From Minisyncoccota bacterium (GTDB lineage Bacteria; Patescibacteriota; Minisyncoccia; Phycocordibacterales; CSBR16-119): a stretch of 64,000 bases of DNA. The first letter of the stretch is position 1. Every line of letters starts with the position of its first letter. The DNA is taken from the NCBI GenBank assembly GCA_041389065.1, contig JAWKSM010000002.1, positions 65,556 to 129,555 of the forward strand, read 5' to 3'. Made by a program: the position numbers and the translations under genes. Shown here piece after piece: positions 28,570-64,000 of the stretch. The notes beneath the pieces are model-generated. The model ran no database searches. It was not told the origin of the DNA and saw only the letters and a list, made by a program, of their open reading frames with translations.

Positions 28570-28575
28570 TTTTCT

Positions 28576-33215: not shown

Positions 33216-33539
33216 TTGCGACCTCTCTTCTTTTGCTTGCTCGTAATTGCGAATTTCGCTTTTGGACAAACAACGCTCATATCTGATGTTCAGAACAATA
33301 ACTTAAAACCAAGAAAGACAAAATACTACAGGATACCTGGACAAGGTATTCTAATTCAATTGAGATATAAAAGTGGGAGAATTTTTCTTTATGGTAATGA
33401 TACAGAGAGTAGAGAGGGCGATTTTATAAACGAAGACTATCCAATAAATCAAAGAAGATTGACAGACTCTCTAGCCGGACCAACCTTTTTCGTTCTTCGA
33501 AGATCGAAACATGCGCCCGTAGAAAAAGTATCAATATAA
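33216..33539 (+). CDS. small secreted hypothetical protein
   Basis: 107-aa track ORF with a TTG start. The signal-like N-terminus is LFFCLLVIANFAFGQ. An ATGAAAGC just upstream is out of frame by one base. Confidence 0.35.
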   Translation: MRPLFFCLLVIANFAFGQTTLISDVQNNNLKPRKTKYYRIPGQGILIQLRYKSGRIFLYGNDTESREGDFINEDYPINQRRLTDSLAGPTFFVLRRSKHAPVEKVSI

Positions 33540-33560
33540 TTCCGATACAAAATCTTGGCA

Positions 33561-34124: not shown

Positions 34125-34536
34125 ATAAAAAGATTATAACAAAATATATAACAAAACACAAAAACTCCCGCAAATGCGGGATTTTATGTTGATGGGATAA
34201 ATTATCGCTTTTCTTCTCGCAGCTTTTTCTTGCTGTCTTCTTGCAGCTTTTTTAGCTACCTTCTCGGCAGCTTTTTCTTTGACATATTAGTTAGATCACT
34301 CTTCAAGGATTAAAACTATTAATAATATCAACCTACGTTCTCCTTAAAACTTTTACAAAAGCCTGAAGGGAAAGTTTGTTTGAAGTGAACGTTACTAAAA
34401 TTTACTTCTTTTTTAAATGCACAGAGTAAAATAAAACTGTAAAACTTTTCTTTCTAAAAAATTTTTTAGAAAAAAAAGTTTTACAAAAAAATAAAAAAAT
34501 TGCAAAACTTGTTTTGGCAAATTTTTTATTTTATTT

Positions 34537-35089
34537 TTATTTTTTAAATAGTTTGAAAGTAATATTTGTTGGAAGAGAAAACTTTGATTCGACATTCCAT
34601 TTCACACATTTATAATCAAGTTCTCGATCTTTTAGGAAACACTTCCACTTGATTCCGATGATGATTCTTCAGAAACAGTACTGGTAACCTCTGTACGTCA
34701 TCGATGTCCGCGTAGATTGATTCGCCATCGCTTATCATTGAAGTTTTTATATCTCCCATTCCAGCCGGAAGTCCAGAAACACTAATCTTGCTTGTAAAAT
34801 CTCCTCTTATTTTCTTTCCTGAAATATACACAACTCCATTTGAAGATCCGACTTCTGAAGAATGGGTCACTGTGCATTCGTAGTTTCCACCTCTTTGTGC
34901 AATTTTTGCCAAAGTTGTCTTTTCGTTAAAATCTTCTTCCATATTTACATTTTCTGATTCTTGCATTTCTCCCGCATCAGAAGACATATTTTCTGTGTTT
35001 TCATTTTGCATTTCTTTGTCGCCTCCCTTGAATATAAAAAACGCAACACCGCCTAAAACCAAAAGTCCTACTAAAATTTTTGTGAACAT
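34537..35089 (-). pseudogene. membrane-anchored secreted protein, C-terminus frameshifted
   Basis: Track ORF 34616..35089 reads well up to SMISDGESIY. The expected continuation is split over other frames: STVSEESSSESSGSVS, then LDYKCVKWNVESKFSLPTNITFKLFKK, with a stop at 34537-34539. Confidence 0.5.
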
Positions 35090-38230: not shown

Positions 38231-38440
38231 GAAGAGAAAATAAAGTCAGAAGTTGAAAGAATCAAACGATTCAATCAGTCGGTTTTGAACACTAAACAAC
38301 AGATACAAATAAAAGACGTGGATATCAGAGACTACGCCAAATTTATTTTGAAAGATGGATCAATCGAAGAGAAACGAGAACTGCTTACTTGTTTTAAGAG
38401 CAAGATTTTACTTAAAGAAAAGCAAATCTACTTGCCTTAA
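38231..38440 (+). pseudogene. 3' remnant of a large serine recombinase gene
   Basis: A 69-codon open frame with no start codon, directly preceded by TAA TAA. It reads ...IRDYAKFILKDGSIEEKRELLTCFKSKILLKEKQIYLP. This resembles the C-terminal tail of large serine recombinases (from memory, not searched). Confidence 0.45.
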
Positions 38441-38838
38441 GAAAAACTGATCGAGAAGTTATACATTCCCATACCACAAACTCCTTGAAGTGGAACTCCA
38501 GATTTGGGCGTGCCTATATCAATAACTTCTTCTCCAGTTTGAGCTAGGACTTTCTGGTATCCAATAGATTTGATCACCAAGGATGATGAGCAATCATAGG
38601 TGCCGTTTGTTTTAACGACAAGCTTGGTAGGAATATCTGCTTTGGCAGAAGATATTTTTGGAGAATATCCACCCTTAGCATCAATCGTTATATATTGAAC
38701 ACCATCTCGTATCTCTACGTTTTGGGCTTGCTGTATTGAAGTGGTATCAGATATTTTTTGCTTTGATCCACCAACAAATATGATGCCGAGACCTACCACA
38801 AGGGCTAAAGTAATAATGATTGAAGCGGTTTTGTTCAT
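38437..38838 (-). CDS. cupredoxin-like domain protein (membrane-anchored)
   Basis: I prefer the ATG at 38838 (MNKTASIIITLALVVGLGIIF). The body reads YITIDAKGGYSPK...KTNGTYDCSSSLVI...GVCGMGMYNF, a pattern seen next to copA genes. Confidence 0.6.
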   Translation of the reverse strand: MNKTASIIITLALVVGLGIIFVGGSKQKISDTTSIQQAQNVEIRDGVQYITIDAKGGYSPKISSAKADIPTKLVVKTNGTYDCSSSLVIKSIGYQKVLAQTGEEVIDIGTPKSGVPLQGVCGMGMYNFSISFS

Positions 38839-38845
38839 AAAGTAA

Positions 38846-39853
38846 TTATATATTAAATAAAGGATTAATAATTCCGAGTCCTGCCAGACCTGCAAGCAGT
38901 GCAAATATTCCAAGACCTATTACCACGACTCCAGCAGATTTGAAGAACAATGGCGCATGTTTCCCATTAGCAAGTGATGCTCCTCCAAATGACAGGAGCA
39001 AAAGCATCGGGAGCGTACCAAGAGCAAACGCGAGCATAATAAGTAATCCTGAAATAAATGAACCGCTAGACAGTGCCACAACTTGCATCGACTGAGTAAA
39101 GCCGCAAGGCAAGAAGAATGTAGCAAATCCAATTATTAAAGGAGTTAGAGTCTTGTGTTCTATTTTGCGGAAGAAGTTAAAAATTCCTGAAGGTAATGCA
39201 ACCTTGTTCTTTTTGAACACTCCGACCAGATTAAGTCCCAATAGGAGCATTACTATTGACGCAACAATCCCTAGAATTGCAGTAAAAGTAAAACTGATTC
39301 CTATAGCACTCCCAACTAAGCCAAGCACCCCGCCAAGGAACGCAAAACTAACAAGTCTTCCGATGTGGAAAAGTATGAAAGTTTTTGTATCGCTTACGTT
39401 GTCTTGAGAGATTTTTGCTGAAAGTGATAGAACAAGTCCTCCAACCACAGCAAGACAACTTGATACAGATGCGATTAATCCAATAATGAAACTTGTGGCA
39501 GGCGTGGTTGTGCCACCGATACCAAGATTTAATAGCCCTGACTTTTGTAATACAAAGAAAAGTATTAAGAATACTAACCCTATAGGTAGTGCCTTCCAGA
39601 TAACATCATCTTTTTGTTTTTCTATTAAAACCCTTTCTACTGATACCGTATAGCCGTTTGGTTTTACCTTCTCAGTAAGTAAATCTGCCAATTCTTCTGG
39701 AGATTTCTCACTCACAGTTTCTATTCGTAAGGTTTGATTTTTTAAATCTACTTGTGCGCTACTAATATAATCTTGATCATTTAAAACATCTTCGATTAAG
39801 ATTTTGCATGATGCACAATGGGTACCCGATACGTGTAATGTGTATGCTTTCAT
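38846..39853 (-). CDS. HMA-domain fusion to a TauE/SafE (DsbD_2-like) membrane protein
   Basis: 335 aa. The N-terminal metal-binding motif is GTHCASC. The membrane domain carries SSCLAVVGG and FLPCGFT. Confidence 0.7.
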   Translation of the reverse strand: MKAYTLHVSGTHCASCKILIEDVLNDQDYISSAQVDLKNQTLRIETVSEKSPEELADLLTEKVKPNGYTVSVERVLIEKQKDDVIWKALPIGLVFLILFFVLQKSGLLNLGIGGTTTPATSFIIGLIASVSSCLAVVGGLVLSLSAKISQDNVSDTKTFILFHIGRLVSFAFLGGVLGLVGSAIGISFTFTAILGIVASIVMLLLGLNLVGVFKKNKVALPSGIFNFFRKIEHKTLTPLIIGFATFFLPCGFTQSMQVVALSSGSFISGLLIMLAFALGTLPMLLLLSFGGASLANGKHAPLFFKSAGVVVIGLGIFALLAGLAGLGIINPLFNI

Positions 39854-39855
39854 AA

Positions 39856-42150
39856 TTATAATTTCTTAGCTTTAATGCGAAGCGAATTCGACACTACGGA
39901 GACCGACGACATCGCCATAGCTAATCCAGCAAAGATAGGATTCAAAAGCCAACCGAAGATTGGATAGAAAGCACCTGCGGCAAGTGGTATACCGACAATG
40001 TTGTAGACGAATGCCCAGAAAAGATTTTGCTTGATTCCTCGCATAGTGATTTTGGAAAGCTTGATAGCTTTTACAAGCTTTGAAATATCACCGCCAAGAA
40101 GTGTGATGCCTGCAGACTCGATCGCAACATCCGTACCCGTACCCATAGCAATCCCTACATCAGCCTGAGCAAGCGCAGGCGCATCGTTCACTCCATCACC
40201 AGCCATAGCAACAATACGACCTTGCGATTGAAGTTCTTTTATTTTTTCAAGCTTATCCTGCGGTAACACATGAGCTACAACATCATCGATACCGACTAGT
40301 GACCCGATATACTTTGCAGCTTTTTGATCATCTCCTGTAAGCATAACTACCTTTATGCCGAGAGCGTGAAGATTTTTAATAGCCTCGACTGACTCGGTCT
40401 TGATTTCATCTGCCACCATCACGAAACCAAGAACTTTTTCATTGGTGGCAAGAATGACTGGTGTTTTTCCTTGTGAAGTAAACTCATCTAACTTATTAGC
40501 GTCAAATGAAATCTTGAGATCACTCACAAGTTTTGCATTACCTACAAAATATTCAGTGTCTTTAATCTTTCCCTTAAGACCCTTTCCTTGTATTCCTTCA
40601 AAGTTTGAAACATCAGATATTGAGATATTTTTCTCTTGTGCGTAGTTTACGATTGCGTGTGCGATCGGATGCTCTGATTTTTTCTCAAGCGAAGCGAGGA
40701 TTGAAACAAGCTCATCATCTTTCAAGTTTGAGAAGTTTTGTATATCAACAAGCGTCGGCTTTCCCTTGGTGATTGTTCCTGTTTTATCAACGACGATAGT
40801 GTTTACCTTATGAAGCTTTTCGAGAGTAGCCGCATCTTTGATGAGGATACCTTCCTTAGCACCTTTGCCGACTCCCACAATGATTGCGGTTGGAGTAGCA
40901 AGTCCGAGTGCACACGGACAGGCGATCACTAGAATTCCTACAAAAGATACGAGACCAAATGAAAGTGCCTGAGAAAATCCGAGATATTGCGACCCGACAA
41001 TAAGCCATGTGCCGAGACTAAGGAATGCAATTACAAGAACTATGGGCACAAAAATTGCTGATATTTTGTCTGCCAGTGCCTGTATGGGAGCCTTGCTTCC
41101 TTGTGCGTCCTCAACCATCTTTATGATCTGAGCCAAAAGAGTTTCTGATCCGACCTTTGTGGCTTTAAAAGTGAACGATCCGCTTGTATTTATTGTTCCC
41201 GATACGACATTGTCACCAATCTTTTTCTGGGCAGGCATCGGTTCCCCTGTAACCATCGATTCGTCAACAAAAGATGCCCCTTCAGTAATAACGCCATCAA
41301 CAGGAATCTTTGCACCTGGCTTAACAATAATGAAATCGCCATGCTTAACATCATTCACTGAAATCTCGATTTCCTTCCCATCACGAACAACAAGAGCGGT
41401 CTTCGCCTGAAGGTTGAGAAGCTTTTCGATGGCATCTCCTGTTTTAATTTTAGACCTTGCCTCAAGGTATTTACCAAGCGCAATAAAAGTAATGACTACA
41501 ATTGTTACATCGTAGTATTGATATTCGACGTTAATAAATGTCTTGAGAACATCCTCAAAAGCACTGACGGCGAAACTGTATAAAAAAGCGGCTACCGTAC
41601 CGATACCGATAAGCGTATCCATATTCGCTTTGCCGTATCGGAGAAATCTATAAAAACCAAGAAGGTATGGCTTACCTACGACAAAAAGGATATAAGTGGC
41701 AAATATCGGAAGGAGATGATGAAAGAATTCCTTGAGCGTATAACTCATTGCAGGAACGATGCTGTACTCAGCGAGAATATCCCAACCCATAACGAAAGCG
41801 GCAAAAACTGCCAGCGGAATTGCAGAGAGAACTTTCGTTCGCATATCACTAACCTCAGCAAGTTTTTCTTTCTTAGATTGGTTGAGCCCTAGATGTGCCG
41901 CATGTTCGCTTTCGGACATACCCATCTCGTTCGCTGTCTCGGGAACCTCAAGAGAATACCCGAGAGGTTCGATATGCTTAGAGAGGTCATGAGGACTGGT
42001 TTTTGAAGGATCAAAGGAAACCTTCGCCCTTTCTGTACCATAGTTCACTTCCGCAGAATGCACCCCCTCGACTTTCTTAAATGTTTTTTCAATAACAGAT
42101 GAGCATGAGGCACAATGCATTCCTTTTACGTTATATGTCTGTGTGTGCAT
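39856..42150 (-). CDS. copA: copper-translocating P1B-type ATPase
   Basis: 764 aa. The N-terminal HMA motif is GMHCASC. It also has TGEP, the CPC in [17 protein letters not shown], and [10 protein letters not shown]. Confidence 0.95.
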
Positions 42151-42154
42151 AAAA

Positions 42155-42430
42155 TTATTTTCTCTTTAGCTTATAAACTTTTAAAATTTCCTGCTTTGCC
42201 TTTTCAGTCTGTCCAGCTTTCACCTGATTCAGGATGCATCCACCAAGATGATTTTCGAGCAGTAAGTCTTCCACATTGGAAAGTCCCTGCTTGACCGCAG
42301 AGGTTTGGGTGATCACGTCAATACAGTAGGTATCGCTTTCAATCATCTTTTGCAGGCCTCGAATCTGCCCCTCGATAAGCTTGAGGCGACGGATAATCTT
42401 TCCTTTACTTTTATCTTCCATATATTTCAT
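42155..42430 (-). CDS. csoR: CsoR-family copper-sensing repressor
   Basis: It contains [37 protein letters not shown]...HLGGC. The track ORF extends to 42484 across the promoter. ATG 42430 (MKYMEDK) lies 7 nt after the -10 box, and ATG 42421 is also possible. Confidence 0.85.
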
Positions 42431-42437
42431 ACTTAGC

Positions 42438-42467
42438 ATTATATACCCCCTAGGGGGTATAGTGCAA
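42438..42467 (-). promoter_or_regulatory. csoR-copA promoter with an embedded CsoR operator
   Basis: The perfect 20-bp palindrome TATACCCCCTAGGGGGTATA lies at 42442-42461. The -35 box TTGCAC is at 42462-42467 and the -10 box TATAAT is at 42438-42443 on the minus strand. The operator fills the spacer and overlaps the -10. Confidence 0.7.
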
Positions 42468-42677
42468 GTCAAACAAAAAACCACCTTCTCAGATGGCTTT
42501 CTGTTCTGGATACTGCTCTCAGCAGGTATGCAATGTGCGGAATAGTTACCTTTGATTTCTACCGAAACTTGAAGAGTCTAGGACACCCCCTTTGGAGGGT
42601 TCGTGCCCATGACTCGTTCTTAAAATGCTTTGGAAAATATAGCGATTTTAAGAGTCTCGATAGCTCTCACTTGGCTG

Positions 42678-42747
42678 CTGCCGGACTAGGACTCGAACCT
42701 AGATAGCTGGTACCAAAACCAGAGTCCTACCATTAGACGATCCGGCA
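42678..42747 (-). tRNA. tRNA-Gln-like (UUG expected), anticodon loop one nucleotide short as assembled
   Basis: The hand-folded acceptor is TGCCGGA/TCCGGCA, giving U1-A72, with discriminator G73. The D arm is GTCT-AATGGTA-GGAC and the T arm is CTAGG-TTCGAGT-CCTAG. The anticodon stem CTGGT/ACCAG encloses only 6 nt (TTTGGT). Confidence 0.7.
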
Positions 42748-44298: not shown

Positions 44299-44341
44299 AG
44301 GTGTATTAAATCAGAAGCGAAAAAGCTTCAAAATATAGAAC

Positions 44342-44372
44342 AATGGCCCGCCGGCTTCGCCGGCGGGCCATT
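44342..44372 (-). terminator. rho-independent terminator
   Basis: GGCCCGCCGGC-TTC-GCCGGCGGGCC with AAT/ATT extensions. Confidence 0.75.
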
Positions 44373-44375
44373 GTT

Positions 44376-45326
44376 CTATTCATTATTATCTACCTTTTTC
44401 TTTTTCTTTTTCTTTGATTTCGCTTTTTCTTTTTCTTTGATTTTTTTATCAACCTTTTTAACAGCTGCTTCTATAATTTTTTCTGCAATATTAACACCTG
44501 TTGCTCTTTCAATTCCTTGAAGCCCGGGAGAAGAATTAACTTCAATTATAAGCGGACCACGAGAAGATATGAGCATGTCCACGCCAGCGACCATCAAACC
44601 GTGAAGTCTTGCCGCTTCCACTGCCACAGCTTTTTCTTTTGTAGAAAGTTCGATTGGTCTAGCCGATCCACCCTTGTGAAGATTTGAACGAAATTCCCCT
44701 TCTTGTCCGCTTCGCTCCATTGCGCCGACAACCTCTCCATCAACAACAAAAGCTCTAATATCTTTTCCTCCCGCTTCTTCAATAAATTCCTGAACAATAA
44801 TATCTTTTTTAATTCCTGAAAAAGCTTCAACGGCAGATTTTGCAGACGAAACTGAATCTGCTTTTATAACTCCTGTTCCGTGGGTTCCTTCTAGGAGTTT
44901 TAAGATAACAGGAGTTCCACCAGCTTCAGCGATCATTGTTTTAACATCGTCGGCTTTTGGATGACGAGCAAAAACAGATTTTGGAATCCCGACACCAGAC
45001 TTTGAAAGAATTTGAAGTGAACGAAGTTTGTCTCGAGAACGGATAAGCGCAGTCGAGGTCAAAGTCGATGGAACGCCCATCAAATCAAACTGCCTGATAA
45101 CAGCAGCACCGTAAACAGTCACAGAAGCACCGATTCTTGGAATAATAATATCAACATCTTTTATATATTCTGATCCGACCCTGATAGCTGGTTTTGCTTT
45201 TTCCATAATCAAATTACATTTTGTGTGATCGATTATTGAAACTTCGTGACCCAAGTTTTTTGCAGATTCAAGCAAACGCTTTGTCGAATAAAGATCTGGC
45301 TTTCTTGAAAGAATAACTATACGCAT
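44376..45326 (-). CDS. rimK: RimK-family ATP-grasp alpha-L-glutamate ligase
   Basis: 316 aa. It contains MRIVILS...SLQILSKSGVGIPKS...VILKLLEGTHGTGV...IRAFVVDGEVVGAMER...NLHKGG...EVNSSPGL. The C-terminal tail is lysine-rich (KSKKKKKKK). Confidence 0.9.
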   Translation of the reverse strand: MRIVILSRKPDLYSTKRLLESAKNLGHEVSIIDHTKCNLIMEKAKPAIRVGSEYIKDVDIIIPRIGASVTVYGAAVIRQFDLMGVPSTLTSTALIRSRDKLRSLQILSKSGVGIPKSVFARHPKADDVKTMIAEAGGTPVILKLLEGTHGTGVIKADSVSSAKSAVEAFSGIKKDIIVQEFIEEAGGKDIRAFVVDGEVVGAMERSGQEGEFRSNLHKGGSARPIELSTKEKAVAVEAARLHGLMVAGVDMLISSRGPLIIEVNSSPGLQGIERATGVNIAEKIIEAAVKKVDKKIKEKEKAKSKKKKKKKVDNNE

Positions 45327-53304: not shown

Positions 53305-55029
53305 TTACGACATTGTGTGAAGTTCGTCTTCACTTCCCTGCACCACAGGAGTTTTCCAAAACTTTTTCTTGCTTAGAACTTTTTCAATTTGTGCCATTTG
53401 TTCATTTTTCAAAACTTTAAGAACAACATAGCCAGAACAGATACCAAGAACTCCAGAGAAAAATCCTTGTCCCAATATTCCCCAAAAAGTATTTATATTT
53501 AAAAAGTTATCAAAAACATTTAAGAATGAATATGCGACATAGCCCATAAAAAATGCACCGGCAAAACTTTGGAAAAATGATTTTAACAAGAAAGAATCTT
53601 TTTCATCTTTAACTTTAAAGTCACTTCTAAAATTTATCCAAAGGAAAAATGCGTTTAGTATTGATCCCAAAGAATACGCGAGCGGTAACATTACAATTTC
53701 TGAGTGATTAATATTTTCAATTCGAAGAAGGCTTTCGAAAAAATATCTAAACAGTTCGCTATTTTTAAAAATATGAACAAAATAAAAAGCAGAAATAATT
53801 GTTATTAAAGTAGAAAAAATATTTATATAAAGTGGCTTTTTTGTGTTTCCGGCAGCGTAGTAACCACGAGTGAACAAAAGTATCAAGCTTTGTGCAGAAA
53901 TCGAAATAGCAAAGAGTGCGAGTGACGCGGCAGTAAGCCTGGTGTCGTCCCAAGAAAAGCTTCCTGTTCCCAAAATAACACGGACGATTTGCGCACGTAA
54001 AACTATAAACAAAAACATTACTGGAAGTGACCAGAAAATAATCTGTCGTGCAGCAAGTGCAATATAAGAAACGAATTCGCTCATTTTTTGACCTTGGAAA
54101 AATCTTGCCAACGTTGGAAAAGCTGCAACAGAATAAGAAATCCCGATAATCCCGAGTGGAACATTTTGCAAATTCAAAGAAAATTGAAAAGTGGAAATCG
54201 CACCTTCACCAATAAGCGAAGCTATCGCCACGATAGCTATTAAAGAAATCGTACTGAGAGAAAGCCCGATAGTTCTTGGAAGCGAAGTCAGAATCATTTC
54301 TTTTAGGTCAGTCCAATTTACTTTAAAAGAAATCGCTGGGAAAAAGTGATGTTTTAACAAAACTGGAAACTGTATCAACATGTGAAGAAAAGCACCAAGA
54401 ACAACTCCGGCAGCAAGCCCTGGCAAACCCCACACAGGGTAAAAGAAAATAATCCCCAAAATTATTCCAAGATTATAGAAAAGTGGACTTAGTGCAAAAA
54501 TAAAAAACTTTTTGAACATTTGTGTGACAGATCCAAAAAGATTTGAAAGACCAAGAAAAATTGGCGAAAGAATCATTATTCTACTAAGTAAAATAAGGTC
54601 TTTTAGCTCATTACCAGAAAATCCAGGAGCAACAATCTTCACAAGGCTCGGCATAAAAATAAGACATAGAAAAGAAACGACGATCATCGCAAAAAGAAAA
54701 ACTGTAAATGTGTCGTTTAAAAATTTTCTTGCTTTGACGCTGTTACCGTTCAATTCTCCATCTTCTTTAACGCCAAGTTTTTCTACAAGAAACGGCAAAA
54801 GAACTGTCACCGAAGCCAAAGATGCAACCGAAACAAAAATAAAATCTGGAATACGAAAAGCTGCGTAGTAAACGTCGAGCGAACTCGATGGACCAAGCTG
54901 ATGAGCGAACATTCTGTCACGCACAAGACCCAAAACTTGAGAAAGCAAAGTAAAAAAGCCCAAAATAATCGCGGCTTGATTTATGTTAGAAAATTCTCTT
55001 TGCAATAAACTAAAAACTCTTTTTACCAT
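53305..55029 (-). CDS. murJ: lipid II flippase MurJ (MviN)
   Basis: 574 aa with about 14 TM helices. The N-terminus is AAIILGFFTLLSQVLGLVRDRMFAHQLG...DVYYAAFRIPDF. Confidence 0.9.
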   Translation of the reverse strand: MVKRVFSLLQREFSNINQAAIILGFFTLLSQVLGLVRDRMFAHQLGPSSSLDVYYAAFRIPDFIFVSVASLASVTVLLPFLVEKLGVKEDGELNGNSVKARKFLNDTFTVFLFAMIVVSFLCLIFMPSLVKIVAPGFSGNELKDLILLSRIMILSPIFLGLSNLFGSVTQMFKKFFIFALSPLFYNLGIILGIIFFYPVWGLPGLAAGVVLGAFLHMLIQFPVLLKHHFFPAISFKVNWTDLKEMILTSLPRTIGLSLSTISLIAIVAIASLIGEGAISTFQFSLNLQNVPLGIIGISYSVAAFPTLARFFQGQKMSEFVSYIALAARQIIFWSLPVMFLFIVLRAQIVRVILGTGSFSWDDTRLTAASLALFAISISAQSLILLFTRGYYAAGNTKKPLYINIFSTLITIISAFYFVHIFKNSELFRYFFESLLRIENINHSEIVMLPLAYSLGSILNAFFLWINFRSDFKVKDEKDSFLLKSFFQSFAGAFFMGYVAYSFLNVFDNFLNINTFWGILGQGFFSGVLGICSGYVVLKVLKNEQMAQIEKVLSKKKFWKTPVVQGSEDELHTMS

Positions 55030-55032
55030 AGA

Positions 55033-57435
55033 CTAAATAACAATGTTCACTATTTTACCTTTTACGTAAATAAATTTTTTGATTTGGGTTCCTGAAATTA
55101 TCTCTGCTATATTTTTTTCGGAAGTCGCGATCTCTTTTGCTTCTTCTTCACTCGCATCTGGTGAGATATCTATTTCCGCGCGAACTTTTCCGTTTATCTG
55201 AACAGCGATTTTTACTTTTTCGTCTTTTAGTTTTGACTCGTCAGCTTTCGGCCAAGAAGACTTGTGAATCGAACCACTTTCACCAAGCTCGTGCCACAAT
55301 TCTTCTGTCATGTGTGGTGCAAAGGGCGCGAGGATTTGCAAGAAACTCAAATAATTTTCTTTTGAAAAAGATTCGGCTTCTTCCATTTTGTTAACCAAAA
55401 TCATCATTGAAGACACAGACGTGTTGAATCTAAAGTTTTCGATATCATCGCTGATTTTTTTGATTGTTTTGTTTACCAAAATATCAATTTCTGTATTTTC
55501 TGCACCGATTTTTTCTTTCGCTCGCCATACGCGTTCCAAGAAACGTCGTGTTCCCACAAGCCCATCGGTGTTCCATGAAGTGTATTGATCAAACGGCCCG
55601 ATAAACATTTCATACAAACGAAACGCATCTGCACCAAAGCGGTCTACCATTTCATCTGGATTGACTACGTTTCCCCATCGCTTAGACATTTTTCGTCCGT
55701 CGCTTGCGAGAATAAGTCCTTGGTTTTTCAAAAGTTTGAATGGTTCGTCTGTCGGCACATATCCCAAATCATGTAAAAACTTATTCCAAAAACGAGCATA
55801 CAAAAGGTGTCCTGTCGCGTGCTCTGCGCCACCAATATACACATCTACATTTTGCCAATATTTAAGAGCGTCTTTCCCGGCAAAAGCTTCGCTGTTTTTC
55901 GGATCCATATATCGCAAAAAATACCATGAAGAACCAGCCCATCCCGGCATGGTGTTTGTCTCGTATCCTTTTGAAACCCACTCAGAAACACCAGCAAGCG
56001 GCGACTCTCCTGTTCCCGATGGTTTATATGAATCTACTTTTGGAAGTTCGAGGTCGAGAAGTGGTAGCTCATCTTCTTTCAGCGGATGAATAATTCCATC
56101 TTCGCGTCGAAGTGGAATCGGTTCACCCCAATATCTTTGCCGCGCAAACACCGCATCACGCATTTTGTATTTTGTAACAAATTTTGCAGTACCTTCAGCT
56201 CCTAAATGTTCAACAACTTCTTGTGTGGCATCGTCAGAGAGTAATCCATTCATCCAATTTGCGCTATTTTTTATAACTCCATAACCCGTATAAATATTTT
56301 TATCATCAAAGTCTTCTGGCTTTTCTATAACTTCTTTAATCGGTAAATCAAACTTCTTCGCAAAATCAAAATCACGTTCATCATGTGCGGGCACGCCCAT
56401 CACAGCGCCGGTACCGTACCCTTCTAAAACATAGTCCGCCTCCCACACTGGCACCTCTTCGCCGTTTGCGGGATTTATTGCATACTTCCCAGTAAATTTA
56501 TTTTCTGTTCCAGGCACAGCAAGATAGGTCACACCGAACAGCGTGTCAGGGCGCGTCGTAAATACTTTTATTTTTTCGTCGCTGTCTTTTAGTGCAAATT
56601 CAATTTCCGCACCCTCTGATTTCCCTATCCAATTCCTTTGAATTTCTTTTATGTGCTCTGGCCAATCGATAGTTTCGAGTCCAGACAAAAGTCTGTCGGC
56701 ATATGAAGTAATTCGCAAAAACATTTGCTTCATTTGCTTTTTCACCACAGGAAAACCACCTCGCTCTGACACAGGTTCTCCATTTGGTCCGTCAATGATT
56801 TCATCATTTGCGAGAACTGTTCCAAGCTCTTCGCACCAATTCACTTCCGAAAGACCTTCGTATGCCAAACGATAGTTCATCAAGACATCTTGCTTTTCTT
56901 GTTCTGATTTTGCGCTCCAAGAAGAATCTTCTTTTTCAAATCTCTTCACAAGTTCTGAAATCGGCTTTGCTTTGTTTTCTTTTTCGTCGTAGAAAGATTC
57001 AAAAAGTTTCAAGAAAATCCATTGTGTCCATTTATAGTATTGTGGATCGATAGTTCGCACCTCTCGAGACCAATCATAAGAAAGACCGATAAGCTCGAGT
57101 TGTTTTTTGTAAGTGTCGATAGCTTTTTCAGTGATGACAGATGGATGCTCGCCCGTCTGGATGGCGTACTGTTCGGCTGGAAGACCGAAAGCGTCGAAGC
57201 CCATCGGGTGAAGGACATTGAAGCCCTGCATACGTCGCATACGAGAAAGCACGTCAGAGCCGATATAGCCTCGAGGGTGACCCACGTGAAGTCCAGCCCC
57301 CGAAGGATACGGAAACATGTCTAAGATGTATTGTTTTGGTTTTTGAGAGGATTCTTCGGTTTTATAAATACCGTCTTTTTCCCAGATTTCCTGCCATTTT
57401 TTCTCTATATTTTGAGGATTATAATTATCCGCCAT
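55033..57435 (-). CDS. leuS: leucyl-tRNA synthetase
   Basis: The ATG at 57435 starts MADNYNPQNIEKKWQEIW. The HIGH motif is PYPSGAGLHVGHP and the KMSKS motif is KMSKRWGN. The track ORF's 23 extra N-terminal codons run across a terminator. Confidence 0.95.
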   Translation of the reverse strand: MADNYNPQNIEKKWQEIWEKDGIYKTEESSQKPKQYILDMFPYPSGAGLHVGHPRGYIGSDVLSRMRRMQGFNVLHPMGFDAFGLPAEQYAIQTGEHPSVITEKAIDTYKKQLELIGLSYDWSREVRTIDPQYYKWTQWIFLKLFESFYDEKENKAKPISELVKRFEKEDSSWSAKSEQEKQDVLMNYRLAYEGLSEVNWCEELGTVLANDEIIDGPNGEPVSERGGFPVVKKQMKQMFLRITSYADRLLSGLETIDWPEHIKEIQRNWIGKSEGAEIEFALKDSDEKIKVFTTRPDTLFGVTYLAVPGTENKFTGKYAINPANGEEVPVWEADYVLEGYGTGAVMGVPAHDERDFDFAKKFDLPIKEVIEKPEDFDDKNIYTGYGVIKNSANWMNGLLSDDATQEVVEHLGAEGTAKFVTKYKMRDAVFARQRYWGEPIPLRREDGIIHPLKEDELPLLDLELPKVDSYKPSGTGESPLAGVSEWVSKGYETNTMPGWAGSSWYFLRYMDPKNSEAFAGKDALKYWQNVDVYIGGAEHATGHLLYARFWNKFLHDLGYVPTDEPFKLLKNQGLILASDGRKMSKRWGNVVNPDEMVDRFGADAFRLYEMFIGPFDQYTSWNTDGLVGTRRFLERVWRAKEKIGAENTEIDILVNKTIKKISDDIENFRFNTSVSSMMILVNKMEEAESFSKENYLSFLQILAPFAPHMTEELWHELGESGSIHKSSWPKADESKLKDEKVKIAVQINGKVRAEIDISPDASEEEAKEIATSEKNIAEIISGTQIKKFIYVKGKIVNIVI

Positions 57436-57474
57436 GATTACTATAATACCTGAAAAAAAGTCTTTTTCAAATGA

Positions 57475-57500
57475 AAAACTTCGCCCAAGGGCGAAGTTTT
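57475..57500 (-). terminator. rho-independent terminator
   Basis: AAAACTTCGCCC-AA-GGGCGAAGTTTT. Confidence 0.7.
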
Positions 57501-57508
57501 TCATTTGA

Positions 57509-58774
57509 TTAATTTTGTTTTACTTCAGGAGTCCATTGTACTTTGTACATAATTTTTGGATCCTCTAGGTAAACTTCTGATTCTGGACAATCTATTATTT
57601 CGTTTGCCATCATCTTAGTTGTTTTATACCATCGATATGTTGCTTTTTTCTTAAAGAATGGGAACCAAGGATTTAGAATTTGTTCAGAGTATTTTTCTTG
57701 GAAAGCCCCAACAGCTTTTGCTGTAGCTTCATCATATACTCCGTTCACTGTTAGACCTGCATTCACTTCTTCATTTAGAAATTCTTGAATTCTTGCAACT
57801 TCTCCACCAACATCACCTTTTTTGTGATATTCAGTGAATGGAACACAAGCTCCCAAAACATCGCCTTCTGTAGAAGCTCCTAAAACTGAGCCCCCTGATC
57901 GTGATCCAGATGAACTACTTGAGCCACCTGAAGTTTGTTGTGGAGGTGTGTCTTGATTTCCATCACCATTAGTCGGATTATTGTCACCTGGTTCTTCATC
58001 AATTGGTTCATCAGCACATACAACTCTTACATCATCTAGGAAAGTTCCAGTTGAGTTTGGAAAACCAGCATCTTCAAATGCGATTGTTGTAACTGAAGAT
58101 GTTGCAGTGAATCCTATAGTGTAAGTTGTCCAAGAAGTATTAATACCTGCATATGCCCCAGTTGATTGGGTGTCTTTATGATCTCCATTAATGAAAACTT
58201 TTAAAATATTTTCACCTTCATATGTTCCAGGTCGTGGAGAAAATGCATAACTAAGTTCGTAGTATTGTCCCGGGATTGTAGAAATATCTTGAGAAATTCT
58301 AACTGACGCCGCTCCGCCTGCTGGATTTCCGTAATCAGTATCAAGCTCTGAGTGTTGATTTCCTTCATAACTTGTCCATCCATTTACACCATTATGTAGT
58401 TCAAGCTTTGCAACTTCTGGCGCACCAGCAATATCGCTTCGCCATTCAACATTCCATCCAAGACCTGGTGTTCCGTTGTCATAAATATCCCAAGAATTTT
58501 CTGGAGCAATAGGATATTCAAATCCTCCGTTTGCAACAAGATTTTCTTGAATGTCACAATATCTTGGATTTTCTTCAAAGATGTTTAGAACGATAATTGT
58601 TCTATTTCTTCCTGCGTTACTTTGGTTTAGAACAATGTGTCCGTCTGCGTTTGTGTTAAATGAATTTCCATCTGCATCGATACTTCCTTTTGGATCAAGA
58701 TTTAAGTCAAGACCAGAAGTGAAAAGGTTGTCGTTGTATTCGTCAACATCTTCAAAAGCATCAACTGGAAGCAA
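57509..58774 (-). CDS. surface protein B, intact C-terminal part: DUF642-like beta-sandwich, Gly/Ser linker and peptidoglycan-binding domain
   Basis: 421-aa track ORF. It contains LVANGGFEYP...LGWNVEW...HSELD...ISQDISTIPGQYYELSYAFSPRPG...FLDDVRVVC, then GGSSSSSGSRSGGS, then the PG_binding_1-like ARIQEFLNEEVNAGLTVNGVYDEATAKAVGAFQEKY. Confidence 0.7.
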   Translation of the reverse strand: MLPVDAFEDVDEYNDNLFTSGLDLNLDPKGSIDADGNSFNTNADGHIVLNQSNAGRNRTIIVLNIFEENPRYCDIQENLVANGGFEYPIAPENSWDIYDNGTPGLGWNVEWRSDIAGAPEVAKLELHNGVNGWTSYEGNQHSELDTDYGNPAGGAASVRISQDISTIPGQYYELSYAFSPRPGTYEGENILKVFINGDHKDTQSTGAYAGINTSWTTYTIGFTATSSVTTIAFEDAGFPNSTGTFLDDVRVVCADEPIDEEPGDNNPTNGDGNQDTPPQQTSGGSSSSSGSRSGGSVLGASTEGDVLGACVPFTEYHKKGDVGGEVARIQEFLNEEVNAGLTVNGVYDEATAKAVGAFQEKYSEQILNPWFPFFKKKATYRWYKTTKMMANEIIDCPESEVYLEDPKIMYKVQWTPEVKQN

Positions 58775-59432
58775 TATTTGATCACTGTATTTTGTTGTCC
58801 AAGTTACAGAATCATCACCACCTGTGATTTCTTCTTGTCAAAGCCTTCCGGCCATGTAAGGTTTGAGAATTTTATACATTCACTGTCTGGAGTTTCTCCA
58901 AAAAATGCTTTTGTTGGAGTAAACGCGTCAGTTGTGAAAACTGCGTCTGGGTTGATTACAGGTTGAGCATTTAGTCCTTCTGTTCCTGGTGTTGCTGGTT
59001 TTCCAACCCAAGGAATTGTAAATGTGTATCCTGGAACTGCCCATCAGCAATCATAATTTCATCGCCAACTTTTCTTAGCGATTGGCACAAACTGTGATAG
59101 AAGCGTTTGCAACTGGTGGCAGCACAATATTGATTTGCAGCCTTGTGGCAACTTCTTCCATTTGCTGTTTCGTCAAAAACAACTTCTGCTTCAACAAGCT
59201 CACCTTCTTTAATTGCTTCTTCAGTTTTCTGAGTTCTTCTTCTTTTGAGATTCTATTCATTTTTACCTCTTCTTCAAATAAGCTTCTTTGTCATTTGAAA
59301 TTTCTTCAGTTTTACTTCAACTTTTTTCTTCAGAAATTGAAGTTGGAACTTCGATTTGTACATTTCATGTTGAATGTCATTGCAAAAACAGTAAATATTC
59401 CTAGTGATTTTGATAATATGTTTTGTACTTTC
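58775..59432 (-). pseudogene. surface protein B, N-terminal part broken by at least five frameshifts
   Basis: The signal peptide MKVQNILSKSLGIFTVFAMTF starts at 59432. The later pieces TEEAIKEGELVEAEVVFDETANG, EEVATRLQINIVLPPVANASITVCANR, LRKVGDEIMIADGQ, PGYTFTIPWVGKPATPGTEGLNAQPVINPDAVFTTDAF...NLTWPEGFDK and EEITGGDDSVTWTTKYSDQILLPVDAFEDV lie in alternating frames. They are colinear with paralog A. Confidence 0.65.
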
Positions 59433-59527
59433 ATAATAATCTTATCTAACTACTAACATTAAAATAATAATTTGACTGATAAAAAGCTTATAAAAAATAG
59501 TTAATTAAAAATCGTCGTCTTTTTTGA

Positions 59528-59554
59528 ATTATATCATATAACTATAATTGTCAA
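59528..59554 (-). promoter_or_regulatory. promoter of surface protein B
   Basis: On the minus strand: TTGACA (59549-59554), N15, an extended -10 of TGA plus TATAAT (59528-59536). Confidence 0.5.
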
Positions 59555-59698
59555 CGATTTACCTGAAATAATAAATTAGGTTAAAAATTTAATTACGCAG
59601 CAGCAATTACTGGATTTGAACATTTCTAGTTAGCACTTTGCTAAAAATAAAACAAGAATCAAAAGCAGTACCGTAACGATGTTTTGGATGCTGAGTTC

Positions 59699-60647
59699 TT
59701 ATAGAAACGAAAATTTTAGAATAAGTGCAAACAAAATTACAACAAAAAGTATGATGTACTTGTTGCAGCATCTTGATTTACTAAAAATATCTTTCAAGAT
59801 TAACATGTATTTTTCCATCTTCGTTTGGTAAAACATCTTCTGCGCCAGCAACATTTTGATTTTCAAAAGCTGGGTTACTTGTTTCGGTAAAATTTCAGTT
59901 TGGCTTTCAGCCGGAACTGTTTCTGTATTTGAAAGCACTATTTTCTTGACTTCCAGAATTTTGAGAAGTTGGAGCTTCTGGTTTTGTATCAGATTTTATT
60001 TCAGTTTTTTTCTAAAGCTTTTTTATTTACGTCAAAGTCCTTCCGGAAACTTCAGGCGTGATATTTACCGCTACAAGATTAGCTTCTTGGGTTTCTTCTA
60101 CTTCTTGAGCCTCAGATACTTGTGCGTTTGAATTATTTAAAACACTTGAAGAAACAGGTGTTCCGAACATTTGAACAACAAAGGTTGTTTGTCTGCTATA
60201 CATTCCTTCAGCTGTTGTGCGATTTTCAGCGTATCGATTATTCAGAAATATTTGCTCGGTGGGCAATTCATCGGCTCTTTGGTGCTCTTCAGTCTATTGA
60301 AGTTTATAGCCAAGTTTTCACCAGCGTAAATATAAGTGTATCCAGCTTCATCGAACCAATTGCCAAGGAGTTACGCCTTCAGGACTGACGTGCGCAAAAT
60401 AACTTTTGTGCCATGTCATTTGCTTTGAGGCGACGACATTACAGCTTCTCATTTTTATAATAAAGGTCTGCTGCCTTCTTCAGCTCGGTCTTCGTTTGCC
60501 AAATCAACAAGAAACGCCGACTGAATCGCGCTATCAAGAACTTTAGAGTTTTAATAACATGAGCCAGTAGCAAACAAAAGAATATTGCCGCTAAAGCAGT
60601 TGTCCTTCTTACTAAATTTTCACGTAGAAAATGAGGTTTGTGATCAT
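59699..60647 (-). pseudogene. CAP/SCP (YkwD-like) domain secreted protein, several frameshifts
   Basis: Fragments in different frames are: ATG 60647 MITNLIF; HFLRENLVRRTTALAAIFFCLLLA (TM); VLDSAIQSAFLVDLANEDRAEEGSRPL; KANDMAQK; SYFAHVSPEGVTPW; and RQTTFVVQMFGTP (track ORF 60027..60266). Confidence 0.6.
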
Positions 60648-60692
60648 TTTCTTTATTAGGTATAAAGTATTTCTCAAACTTTTCTGTAGTAT

Positions 60693-60720
60693 ATTATAAC
60701 ACAAATAAAATAAAAATCAA
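60693..60720 (-). promoter_or_regulatory. promoter of the CAP-domain gene
   Basis: On the minus strand: TTGATT (60715-60720), N16, TATAAT (60693-60698). Confidence 0.5.
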
Positions 60721-60775
60721 GCTTTTCTCTACTTATCTAATATTACCAAATTAACTGTGTTTATACATTATTTAA

Positions 60776-61252
60776 TTAGGAATTAATTAAATTTCTTGTC
60801 ATTTCACCCACAATCCCAGTTCCGTTAGTCAAACCAAAGGGCTTTAGTATTATATCTCTGTGAGCTTCTTGAAAACGGATCAGCGCGTCTTGCGTCCCCT
60901 TTCCAAAACGAGTTGTTTCTTGACCAATAGATCAGGACCAGACTGGGCAACCCAAAAAAACCCCTGCTGTTGATCTGTTCTTGAAACTTTACTTCTGGAT
61001 CTTCCGTCACCAGTCGCAACTCTTTTGTAATCAAAAGTTTTGGTTTTTCTATTTTTATTTCTGTTCTTCTTTTGGTTCTTCGTTAGTATTTTCTGCTGGA
61101 TTTTGTTCGGCAACATATACGAGACTAACAAACAAACAACTTCTTTTTCTTTTGTGAAAGCAATTGCTGGAACTATAAAACAGATCCGATAAAAATTGTA
61201 ACAACGAAACCCACGCAATATTTAACTTAGCTGAAAGTATTTTTTTAGTCAT
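60776..61252 (-). pseudogene. small secreted peptidoglycan-binding-domain protein, frameshifted
   Basis: ATG 61252 starts MTKKILSAKLNIAWVSLLQFL. The C-terminal piece is GTQDALIRFQEAHRDIILKPFGLTNGTGIVGEMTRNLINS, with a stop at 60776-60778. It is split over three track ORFs in different frames. Confidence 0.5.
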
Positions 61253-61366
61253 ATTGTTTAATCTAATTATAGCAATACAAATTTTATTCTCCACTACATT
61301 TTTTGTGGAAAACAAAAACCCCTTTCAGGTTTTGTTTAAAAATACAAATCTTACATCCAATAGTTT

Positions 61367-62738
61367 TTATTTTCCGTACATTAGATCGTAGTTAGGATCA
61401 AAAATGTCTAGAATGTTTACATTGTTTACGTTTGAATCTGATTTGCTCCAAGAACTTGTCCTGATTGTTAGCTGCAGTAAGTTATATATCATTTCCATTT
61501 GCTCTGTTGAGAATGGCTTCATGTCACTAACTTCTGTAACTTGATGCATCCACCTGGATAACTGCAAAGTCGCTTGGAGCTTCTAGGATGACAAATATTA
61601 CAGTGGTGTCAGTCTTGTTTTGTGTTCATCCGGTAGCGATCGTTGGTTTAGTGGCGGTGTCCAGGTCATTAACTTCTGACCAGTGGTAAGCTTGGAAATC
61701 GTGAACAGCTTGAACTGTTGATCTTCTTATACACCATCTACTGTTAGTCCTGCATTCCTTATATTCGTTTAAGGAAAGTTTGAAGTGCTTTAATTTCACC
61801 ACCTGAATTTCCTAATCCTGCATTGTAAGTTGTAAGAAGGCAACATGTTGAAGCTCCAAAGAACTTCTCCATTTGATGAACCTCTGAACTTCCTGATGAT
61901 GAAGATGAGCCTCCGCCCCTCCACCACCTCCTCCACCACCGCCACCACCTCCGTTTCCTCATCTATCACGATCGTTTTTAACTGAGATAGATCGAGTAAC
62001 AGTAATAGTGTTTAGGAATGAGTCAGTGAATACTAGAAATTTGTATATTATATATACTAACCGCAAGTTATTTCAGTAACAACAGACCGTCAAGATTAAT
62101 TTCTGCTACGGTGTTTGCTTCTAGGTCTTCAGTAGAAACTTTTCGATCTTCGCTAACTCCATCAAAACAAATCCGTTTCATTTGTTATCGCCTGGCTTTC
62201 AGTAACAAACTTTCAGGAACGATTATTGTTGGTTCGTCTTCATCTCCTCCGCACTACACGCGTTGCATGCAATCTTCAATAGTTATGATTCAGCTATAAC
62301 TGTAAACCACTTCTCTTGCATATGAGGTCTGTGAAAATGTATTCAACAGAGAATGTTTGACCTAGTTGAGTAAAGTCAACCAATTCTTCTCCGATAACAT
62401 TTAGATCTAGAGAAAGTGTGATCACGTTTCCTTGTGAATCTGTTGCAACAACACCTTCTAGAAAATCAAAGTTTGTTGTATTAACGTCATAACATACATC
62501 TGGAAGTGTAGTGTAGGATTCTCATCCCCACCATTTCCACCACAATTTTCTTTCACATATACGTTTCGTAGTCCGTAAACCGTAACCATCACTGTCTGTA
62601 ACAGAATGTTCTACACAACATAAGCACCTTCTGTTCCGAAAACAATATTATTTGAAGTTACGTTACCAAGGTGAGAAATATCTCCATCTTCTGCATCTTC
62701 CGCTCTAACTCCAGATAAAACATCATATGAGTCAGCTG
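61367..62738 (-). pseudogene. surface protein A, C-terminal part broken by many frameshifts or stops
   Basis: After the stop at 62739, the +1 frame continues MTADSYDVLSGVRAEDAEDGDISHLGNVTSNNIVFGTEGAYVV, which resembles a DUF5011/Ig-like repeat. More such pieces follow, then a poly-Gly linker (61915-61960) and a PG-binding-like tail ending at 61367. Confidence 0.55.
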
Positions 62739-64000
62739 TCATTGTGGTAGACAGACAGAGTCTGGAATCACGATAATTTTTGGTGGAATATTGTCTGGAT
62801 TACTATCATCCACACAAACCACTTCAACGCCGTCTAGAAGAGTTCCAAGTGAATTTGGATTTCCAAGATCAGAGAATGAAATAGTTGTTTGTGTAGAACT
62901 TGCATAAAATGCAAAGATTCGTGTTTGCCAATATGGTTGTGTTAGTCCAAGTCCTGAATCAGAAACATCATCGTAAAGCACGCCATCAACATAGAAACCA
63001 AGTCTATTGTCTGACTCTGGAGTACCAGGTCTAGCGGCAAATTGATAAGTTACTTTATAGAATTGTCCAGGAACTGTGTCTATTACTTGTGAAATTGTTG
63101 TTGATGCAGGTTCTCCATTTAGACTTCCAACGTGTCCGTTTTGGTCTGAATCAAGTTCTGCGTATTGATCACCATCATATGCTTGCCATCCAGAAACATT
63201 TTCTTGAATTTCAAGTTTTGGTGATACGTTTGGATTAATACCATTCCATGCAACAGTCCAACCAAGGTTAGCTGTTCCATTTTCATAGATATCCCATCCA
63301 GCATTTGAAACTTCTGGAGTTTCAAATGAACCGTTTACAATTAAGTTTCTTGTAGCTTCACAGTATTTTGGAGGTTTTACCTTACTTTCAAAAATGTTTA
63401 CAACAACCAAAGTTCGGTGTCGTCCAGCATTGCTTCTGTTTAGAACAATGTGTCCGTCAGCGTTTGTGTTGAAAGCATTTCCATTTGCATCAATACTTCC
63501 TCTTGGGTCAGCGTTTAAGTCAAGACCTGTTGCGAAAATATTGTCTCGGTAAGTATCAACATCTTCAAAACCATTTACTGGAACAAGAACTTGATCACTG
63601 TATTTTGTTGTCCAAGTTACAGAATCGTCTCCACCAGAAATAGTTTCTTGTCCGTAGAAATAACTTCCTCGTGTTAAGTTTGTGAACTTTTGACACATTG
63701 CGTCGTTTCCATTTGAACCAGACATTATTTGTCTATCTGTAACAAATGCGTTTGTCGCGAAAGTTGCGTCAGGAGAAAGCATTGGTTGAACATTGAAGTT
63801 TTCAGTACCAGGAGTACTTGGTGCTCCAATCCATGGAACAGTAAAAGTGTAACCTGGAACTTCAGTTGCAGAAGCAACTACAGGTGTTCCGTTTACTCTT
63901 TTTGCAATAACTTTACAAACAGTTATTGAACCAAGTCCGTTGTCGTTTGGATCAACGTAACCTGTGAACTTGTTTACAAGTAGGATTTGTCCTTTGAAAC
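62739..64000 (-). CDS. surface protein A, intact N-terminal/central part (DUF642-like); open to the window end
   Basis: Track ORF 62739..63782, and the same frame stays open to 64000 (VSKGQILLVNKFTGYVDPNDNGLGSITVCKVIAKRVNG...). It is roughly half identical by eye to protein B, for example NTNADGHIVLN, VNGSFE, LGWTVAW and LLDGVEVVC. Confidence 0.7.
   Translation of the reverse strand, partial: FKGQILLVNKFTGYVDPNDNGLGSITVCKVIAKRVNGTPVVASATEVPGYTFTVPWIGAPSTPGTENFNVQPMLSPDATFATNAFVTDRQIMSGSNGNDAMCQKFTNLTRGSYFYGQETISGGDDSVTWTTKYSDQVLVPVNGFEDVDTYRDNIFATGLDLNADPRGSIDANGNAFNTNADGHIVLNRSNAGRHRTLVVVNIFESKVKPPKYCEATRNLIVNGSFETPEVSNAGWDIYENGTANLGWTVAWNGINPNVSPKLEIQENVSGWQAYDGDQYAELDSDQNGHVGSLNGEPASTTISQVIDTVPGQFYKVTYQFAARPGTPESDNRLGFYVDGVLYDDVSDSGLGLTQPYWQTRIFAFYASSTQTTISFSDLGNPNSLGTLLDGVEVVCVDDSNPDNIPPKIIVIPDSVCLPQ

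Follow-up and report, generated by a model that had tools for sequence, protein, structure and literature searches.

Frameshifted surface-protein genes in a Candidatus Paceibacterota metagenome contig: a probable local failure of consensus quality

We report that positions 58,838–62,743 of the window (the whole 64,000-nucleotide stretch of DNA analysed here), where four neighbouring surface-protein genes are broken, are very probably uncorrected low-quality sequence in an otherwise good metagenome-assembled genome (MAG) contig, and not a record of gene decay. We infer this artefact from the density of the lesions, the sharp edges of the damaged zone, the intact orthologues in relatives, a twin zone elsewhere on the contig that could be tested directly, and a break in the short-read assembly graph at one of the edges. 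Most likely, all four genes, coding for a DUF642 protein (B), a CAP protein, a small PG-binding protein and a second DUF642 protein (A), are intact in the organism itself.

Extent and content of the damaged zone

The zone lies on the minus strand and covers the N-terminus of protein B, the CAP gene, the gene for the small PG-binding protein and the Ig-like/PG-binding C-terminus of protein A. Lesions were called against the intact orthologues of two syntenic relatives, L081 and L094, in our own alignment that allows frameshifts; this superseded plain tblastn, which reads through frames and masks the lesions. The four genes carry at least 39 frameshifts and about eight in-frame stops, with a mean lesion spacing of 103 nt; the frameshifts are distributed as 5 in the B N-terminus, 11–12 in CAP, 5 in the PG-binding gene and 18 in the A C-terminus. 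Neither the ORF listing nor stop-to-stop maps yield an ORF of at least 125 aa in 58,775–62,739. The sequence-only reading had named four consecutive broken genes, and the alignment recovers all of them in that order; its figure of more than 15 short ORFs was correct as far as it went but too low, and the flanks that it described as open are indeed so, with minus-strand frames at 57,512–58,837 (442 codons, B) and 62,742–63,998 (419 codons, A, continuing past the window). The features are as follows:

57,509–58,837, minus strand: intact C-terminal 442 codons of protein B, a DUF642/PG-binding surface protein (open frame; Pfam DUF642 and PG_binding_1; 100% match to P0001; lesion-free against B of L081 and L094); NCBI annotates 57,509–58,774 as MEZ4210979.1 (421 aa, TTG start)
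58,778–58,813, no strand assigned: B copy of a 36-nt exact repeat common to A, inside a 79%-identical paralogous stretch of 266 nt (58,574–58,839)
58,838–59,434, minus strand: N-terminal third of B, damaged by at least 5 frameshifts and 3 in-frame stops (frameshift-aware alignment to B_646 of L081 and B94 of L094)
59,648–60,684, minus strand: damaged CAP/SCP-family gene, 11–12 frameshifts and 3 in-frame stops (54–62% identity to the L081 and L094 CAP proteins, PF00188, after frame correction)
60,779–61,249, minus strand: damaged gene for the small PG-binding protein, 5 frameshifts (orthologue of 162 aa; PG_binding_1 matches both the last open fragment and the stitched protein)
61,370–62,743, minus strand: damaged C-terminal part of protein A with Ig-like repeats, a Gly/Ser linker and a PG-binding-like end, 18 frameshifts and 4 in-frame stops (alignment to A94; Ig-repeat junctions)
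62,742–64,000, minus strand: intact part of protein A with the DUF642 module, extending past the window (open frame and alignment; NCBI MEZ4210986.1, 696 aa, ends at 62,739)
63,591–63,626, no strand assigned: the 36-nt exact repeat as it occurs in A, lying 845 nt into intact sequence and not a zone boundary

The stitched CAP sequence has no Pfam match, CAP included, and its family assignment comes from its identity to the relatives' PF00188-carrying proteins. The orthologue of A in L094 (A94) is a 1222-aa protein combining DUF642, Bact_surface_Ig-like and PG_binding_1. P0004 (693 aa) was considered as a same-species orthologue of A and rejected, being a B-type homologue from another organism. 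The shared 421-aa size of the ORFs at 30,008–31,273 and 57,509–58,774 is a coincidence, the former encoding an FtsX permease. No RNA genes were detected by Rfam in 58,838–62,743 or in the twin zone at 31,982–34,710.

In character, the lesions are for the most part not the 1-nt changes in A/T runs described earlier: homopolymers show no enrichment, a run of at least 4 nt lying within 4 nt of 16% of the sites versus 16% expected. For the lesion at about 58,838, a 4-nt gap opens whether the alignment is to the paralogue or to the orthologue. DNA alignment of the damaged B N-terminus to the same two sequences shows gaps of 2 nt as well as 4 nt. Shifts of net +1 and net −1 occur in similar numbers (18 versus 21) with no deletional bias, and the length of the zone is conserved.

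Zone edges and the repeat shared by A and B

The density of damage shifts about 200-fold across edges that are sharp and fall within genes. Against 39 frameshifts in 3.9 kb, the neighbouring stretches of B (1,326 nt) and A (1,254 nt) have no frameshift at all, and the Poisson probabilities of their being lesion-free at the zone density are 1.8e-6 and 3.7e-6, respectively; indeed, the first 2.1 kb of the protein A gene are lesion-free. The sparing of the B C-terminus below five frameshifts argues against decay, since a decaying, inactivated gene would not spare its downstream part.

The earlier claim that the boundaries coincide with sequence common to the two paralogues holds on the B side, where the first lesion (58,838) adjoins the repeat, but not on the A side, where the edge at 62,743 is 845 nt from the A copy. 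The 36-mer itself is exactly repeated as had been proposed, although the position given for its B copy was about 8 nt off. Two Logan k=31 contigs of the same species, L092 and L093 (LeuRS 92% identical), begin with the last 30 nt of the repeat, at 58,807 and 25–30 nt from the first lesion. At the A-side edge no strong repeat was found; internal Ig repeats were rejected as its cause, their DNA identity being only 65–74% in L094. The want of an identifiable repeat at this edge is a counterpoint to an artefact.

The intact cluster in relatives

A comparison with relatives, which the sequence-only reading had proposed, finds the same locus undamaged in L081 and L094, both of which keep the four genes intact and in synteny. 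In these Paceibacterota the DUF642/CAP/PG_binding_1 cluster lies upstream of leuS; in L094 it has the same order as in the window (A, small PG-binding, CAP, B, LeuRS, MurJ), and in L081 the order is again that of the window, but with an extra fn3 gene between the PG-binding and CAP genes. Once frame-corrected, the window cluster is 54–82% identical to its counterparts; it differs from them in having one Ig-like repeat fewer in A, in lacking the 190-aa insert of the L094 B protein and the fn3 gene of L081, and in its frame-broken copies. In a relative-rate test, the identity of the window to L081 falls 6–14 points below that of L094 to L081 in the damaged segments, while the intact genes have no such deficit. 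This excess divergence of the window lineage in the genes of the zone is accounted for equally well by sequencing error and by real decay.

A scan for LeuRS among species-representative genomes returned only relatives of at most 57% identity, useless for nucleotide comparison. Look-ups of the exact window proteins LeuRS (with two start choices), MurJ and P0001 gave no match, and no identical strain in the index searched has these genes complete.

A twin zone and rare lesions on the same contig

The twin zone at 31,982–34,710 is where the absence of the lesions from a near-identical strain was tested directly, 58,838–62,743 being spanned only by L081 and L094, whose LeuRS is 73–82% identical. 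An independent short-read assembly (L097; Logan SRR32609001) shows, over 2.38 kb of flank, 3 substitutions and 2 homopolymer-length indels relative to the window (0.13%); inside the twin zone there are 62 gap openings and mismatches of about 6.6%, and every gene of L097 is intact. Similarly, the window has 56 unique indels there versus 3 in an independent same-species MAG (L083). Inserted and deleted bases amount to 67 versus 70 nt, again without deletional bias, and 10 of the 23 1-nt indels have no identical neighbouring base. The excess transitions are strand-asymmetric (A<->G 98 versus T<->C 62, as against 49 versus 67 in the flanks), which fits error from a few single-strand reads. The excess substitutions are also transition-rich (ts/tv 2.7), as would be expected from real mutation too, a counterpoint to the artefact; as a discriminator of error from mutation, ts/tv proved uninformative, the flanks standing at 3.4. 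A literature search on the SRA runs found no paper.

The rest of the window has only rare homopolymer-length errors. These include an ABC ATPase gene in which T4 has become T3 at 29,479 (intact in L083, L085 and L097), a class II aminoacyl-tRNA synthetase gene split at a T-run at about 22,750, and a tRNA at 42,677–42,747 with a 6-nt anticodon loop that one added G or T restores. Such lesions, some of them in indispensable genes, point to an indel-prone type of data.

Artefact versus biological explanations

The account that we prefer is a local failure of consensus quality: in the deposited MAG contig (NCBI, Candidatus Paceibacterota, 134,277 bp), a few kilobases would carry error near the level of raw long reads. 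This error might stem from a single long read, or very few of them, used for bridging or gap-filling, or from a patch missed by short-read polishing; which sequencing platform and exactly which assembly step were involved is the conjectural part of this proposal. The sequence-only reading had itself favoured assembly or bridging from lower-quality data, and this is supported by the steep density edges, the twin zone, the homopolymer errors elsewhere and the two k=31 contig ends at the repeat. Unpolished or gap-filled long-read stretches in metagenome assemblies, whether hybrid or long-read, share with the window several features: indel-dominated, roughly balanced random errors at the percent level; sharp edges that ignore gene boundaries; rare homopolymer-length errors in the remaining sequence; and, at one edge of the zone, a branch point of the short-read graph. 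Unlike them, the window has no Ns or gap marks, and its A-side edge lacks a detectable repeat.

Genuine pseudogenisation, in which the B/CAP/PG-binding/A locus of this lineage would have been inactivated and left to decay through indels and substitutions, is very unlikely. The lesions are present in the deposited sequence, the window lineage has extra amino-acid divergence in the damaged segments only, the locus varies among relatives (L081 has the fn3 gene, and the architectures of its A and B differ), and the twin-zone excess substitutions are transition-rich. Bacterial pseudogene clusters of reduced or host-associated genomes also comprise adjacent genes with multiple frameshifts and stops whose orthologues are intact in relatives. 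However, the lesions here, unlike those of such clusters, end abruptly inside genes and have a density about 200 times the contig background, and the 1.3-kb C-terminus of B is lesion-free below at least five frameshifts (P of about 2e-6). Bacterial pseudogenes accumulate indels with a deletional bias, of which there is no sign in this length-conserved zone. Also against decay, frameshifts occur in essential genes elsewhere, and a near-identical strain lacks the twin zone: the divergence of that zone from L097 is out of step with that of the flank, and 62 indels beside near-identical sequence are impossible at ordinary mutation rates. The recombination-associated decay zone that had been offered as an alternative found no support. 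If the lesions were nonetheless real, which we regard as highly improbable, they would define, in a Paceibacterota population, an extremely localised, recently hyper-mutated and inactivated surface-protein locus, with a second island at 32–34.7 kb, and with edges set by a mutagenic or recombination process anchored at the A/B repeat.

A consensus collapsed from strains, wherein reads from several diverged strains of a hypervariable island were merged as a mosaic whose joins make indels, is a variant of the artefact reading and not a biological alternative. The locus does differ between relatives, same-species contigs are 2–9% different in neighbouring regions, and some short-read contigs break inside the twin zone and at the A/B repeat; yet coding strain variants differ in-frame, and a mosaic of them would not yield about one frameshift per 100 nt with random indels of 1–12 nt, which leaves it very unlikely. 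Surface-protein loci are classic sites of phase variation, and some patescibacterial relatives use recoded stops, so that an alternative genetic code, programmed frameshifting or phase-variable simple-sequence tracts might come to mind. The frame analysis effectively refutes this: the genes are interrupted by changes of frame and not by in-frame stops alone, TGA, TAA and TAG are all present, and the flanking 57 kb read normally in table 11. Further, the lesion sites have no homopolymer or repeat enrichment such as phase variation would need, and about 40 sites far exceed any known programmed system.

Implications

Under the preferred reading of a consensus-quality failure, one MAG contig combines two error regimes: rare homopolymer-length errors throughout and percent-level random errors in kilobase patches. 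The public record contains truncated “proteins”, namely MEZ4210979.1 (421 aa), MEZ4210986.1 (696 aa) and apparently six more entries between them, which in a CPR genome risk being misread as pseudogenes, gene loss or novel short ORFs. Analyses of pseudogenes or genome reduction that use this assembly should mask 58.8–62.75 kb and 32.0–34.7 kb. The biological weight of the locus is small: it is an ordinary DUF642/CAP/PG-binding surface-protein cluster, intact in the relatives of this organism.

Structure of the damaged surface-protein locus

On the minus strand, the genes for MurJ (53,305-55,029) and LeuRS (55,033-57,504) are followed by a surface-protein cluster, in which two paralogous DUF642 proteins, B and A, retain open frames at 57,512-58,837 and from 62,742 to the window end, respectively; in Pfam terms, B additionally displays PG_binding_1. 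Between these open frames, neither the ORF listing nor the stop-to-stop map contains an ORF of at least 125 aa. In the NCBI annotation the B remnant is MEZ4210979.1 (421 aa) and the A remnant MEZ4210986.1 (696 aa), with six accession numbers between them; full-length B homologues have ~646 aa. Two relatives carry intact versions of the cluster:

Intact clusters in relatives
L081 (Logan SRR31843402): A-like 1290 aa, PG-binding 162 aa, fn3 451 aa, CAP 370 aa, B 646 aa, LeuRS, MurJ
L094 (GCA_013558375.1): A 1222 aa (DUF642 + Ig-like + PG-binding), PG 162 aa, CAP 363 aa, B 827 aa, LeuRS, MurJ, TopA, onward

The locus thus varies among relatives, with the arrangement in L094 being identical to that of the window. 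Using a purpose-written frameshift-aware protein-to-DNA alignment, we recovered B, CAP, PG-binding and A from the damaged stretch (zone 2, 58,838-62,743), and the list of broken genes in the sequence-only reading was therefore correct. The CAP gene is assigned by orthology, the stitched sequence falling below the Pfam threshold.

Broken genes of zone 2
59,434-58,838, minus strand: B N-terminus; 54% identity to L094 (damaged part, three-way columns); 5 frameshifts, 3 in-frame stops
60,684-59,648, minus strand: CAP; 62% identity to L094; 11-12 frameshifts, 3 in-frame stops
61,249-60,779, minus strand: PG-binding; 63% identity to L094; 5 frameshifts, 0 in-frame stops
62,743-61,370, minus strand: A C-terminus; 57.5% identity to L094 (damaged part, three-way columns); 18 frameshifts, 4 in-frame stops

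The dense damage reported earlier is hence real, with its lesion count set too low: there are 39 frameshifts (18 net +1 and 21 net -1) at a mean spacing of 103 nt. Zone 2 does not bear out their earlier description as 1-nt changes in A/T runs, since comparison of the B DNA with its paralogue and orthologue gives a 2-nt gap, a 1-nt insertion and two 4-nt gaps, and homopolymers are not enriched near the zone 2 lesion calls.

The edges of zone 2

At the zone's rate of 0.01 lesions per nt, the Poisson probability of a lesion-free flank is 1.8e-6 for the 1,326 nt of B and 3.7e-6 for the 1,254 nt of A. The clean part of B lies downstream of five frameshifts, so that selection on B could not have protected it. 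These flanks argue for a position-bound rather than a gene-bound process.

A 36-mer noted earlier as common to both paralogues is exact at 58,778-58,813 and 63,591-63,626, within a 266-nt repeat of 79% identity, and the first zone 2 lesion (58,838) lies 25 nt from its B copy. Two same-species contigs from separate Logan runs (L092 and L093, k=31; LeuRS 92% identical to that of the window) have an identical first base inside this 36-mer, at window 58,807, their positions 1-30 being its last 30 nt (window 58778-58807). This is how a de Bruijn graph behaves at a repeat common to A and B; hence, short-read graphs break at the B-side edge, and the repeat is conserved in a related strain and fragments k=31 assemblies of the locus, which accounts for the absence of partial B proteins from the searchable protein set. 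On the A side, the edge (62,743) and the 36-mer copy in A are 845 nt apart; this edge lies at the start of A's Ig-like repeats, which in L094 are only 65-74% alike, and a search for a repeat here found none. Thus, the earlier placement of the edges at paralogue-common repeats is supported on the B side only.

A twin zone on the same contig

A second damaged stretch, zone 1 (31,982-34,710), is probably the "Zone 1" of the sequence-only reading. A nearby FtsX protein (30,008-31,273) is found at 99-100% identity in independent assemblies, whose contigs cover window 26.5-41.6 kb. Against one of these, L085, gap openings number 7-18 per 500 nt in 32.0-34.7 kb and 0-3 everywhere else. A five-way alignment gives 56 indels unique to the window in zone 1 versus 3 for L083, an independent same-species MAG, and window-unique substitutions rise there from 3.3% to 8.1%, with L083 at ~3% (its flank count being inflated by a run of ~96 Ns). 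A contig from Logan SRR32609001 (L097) matches the window over a 2.38 kb flank (28,407-30,790) except for 3 substitutions and 2 homopolymer-length indels; inside zone 1 the two differ by 62 gap openings and ~6.6% mismatches, and all genes of L097 are intact there (an efflux adaptor of 466 aa, a Gmad2 protein of 161 aa, and proteins of 136 and 59 aa). Same-species contigs are likewise intact, coding for a 464-466-aa HlyD-like efflux adaptor, a 161-aa Gmad2 protein and 136-, 59- and 183-aa proteins. The indels, of 1-12 nt, are balanced (67 nt inserted versus 70 nt deleted), and 10 of the 23 single-base ones lack an identical neighbouring base. Damage of this kind next to a flank of 99.9% identity is beyond ordinary mutation and resembles raw long-read-level error. 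A 117-codon open stretch in zone 1 (33186-33536, plus strand), with a signal-peptide-like start (MRPLFFCLLVIANFAFGQ), runs opposite to the gene calls of relatives and probably reflects chance in a sequence full of errors.

The comparison with L085 also covers a copper-resistance-like cluster (38437-42484) of a cupredoxin, an HMA-DsbD protein, a P-type ATPase and a CsoR-like repressor. At 38.5-40 kb there are 0-1 mismatches per 500 nt, versus a 4-8% difference in the neighbouring 26.5-36.7 kb; the near-identity at 38500-41000 suggests that the metal-resistance island recently swept through or was exchanged between strains.

Rare lesions elsewhere in the window

Outside both zones lesions are rare, and each is a homopolymer-length change:

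28,503: T5 to T7
29,479: T4 to T3, a 1-nt deletion causing a frameshift at the Walker B region of an ABC ATPase (29289-29965, minus strand); the extra T is present in L083, L085 and L097, whose 226-aa protein is intact
~22,750: T-run splitting a class II (Asp/Lys/Asn-type) aminoacyl-tRNA synthetase (21544-23042, minus strand) into a 104-aa OB-fold ORF and a 408-aa catalytic ORF in different frames, overlapping by 43 nt; probably a homopolymer error in an essential gene
42,677-42,747, minus strand: tRNA with a 6-nt anticodon loop, called by ARAGORN as tRNA-?(Gln|Pro) with a 2-nt anticodon; one added G gives tRNA-Pro(TGG), one added T tRNA-Gln(TTG)

That indispensable genes are frameshifted points to data of an indel-prone type. 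Two error regimes can therefore be distinguished on the contig, namely systematic homopolymer errors at ~1 per 19 kb and percent-level random errors in two kilobase patches. Separately, a G+C-rich perfect palindrome (AAAAGCCCGGCGCC...GGCGCCGGGCTTTT) occurs in three intergenic copies (12116-12160, 14683-14727 and 44338-44377) in this A+T-rich genome; these look like bidirectional intrinsic terminators.

Origin of the damage

A relative-rate test finds extra change on the window lineage in the damaged segments only (CAP: window-L081 identity 53.7% vs 66.1% for L094-L081; LeuRS: 79.0% vs 77.5%), which fits error and decay equally. Real pseudogenisation of the surface-protein locus is at odds with a downstream part of B that is clean, with indels that show no deletional bias, with a zone length that is conserved and with the twin-zone comparison. 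A consensus collapsed from several strains is a variant of the artefact reading, and strain merging alone would not create random frameshifts. Recoding, programmed frameshifting and phase variation fail, since what changes at the lesions is the frame, the sites are not repetitive, each of the three stop codons is present, and the remaining 57 kb is normal in table 11.

The damage in zone 2 is almost certainly not a real biological feature, and the best-supported explanation is that 58,838-62,743 is a poorly corrected sequence patch in the deposited contig. One or very few long reads may have bridged or gap-filled it, or short-read polishing may have missed it; the sequencing platform and the exact assembly step are what we infer here. 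The locus is variable between relatives, and short-read graphs break in it at the A/B repeat. The direct comparison with a near-identical strain covers zone 1, and zone 2 is judged with the relatives L081 and L094. Of the earlier proposal of a lower-quality bridged or assembled segment, the core is supported, by the twin-zone comparison and the clean part of B among others; repeat edges on both sides and A/T-run lesions are not. Most likely, the B, CAP, PG-binding and A genes are intact in the organism, and the value of the finding is that, in this public MAG, two regions (58.8-62.75 kb and 32.0-34.7 kb) are flagged as unreliable, together with the truncated proteins annotated there.
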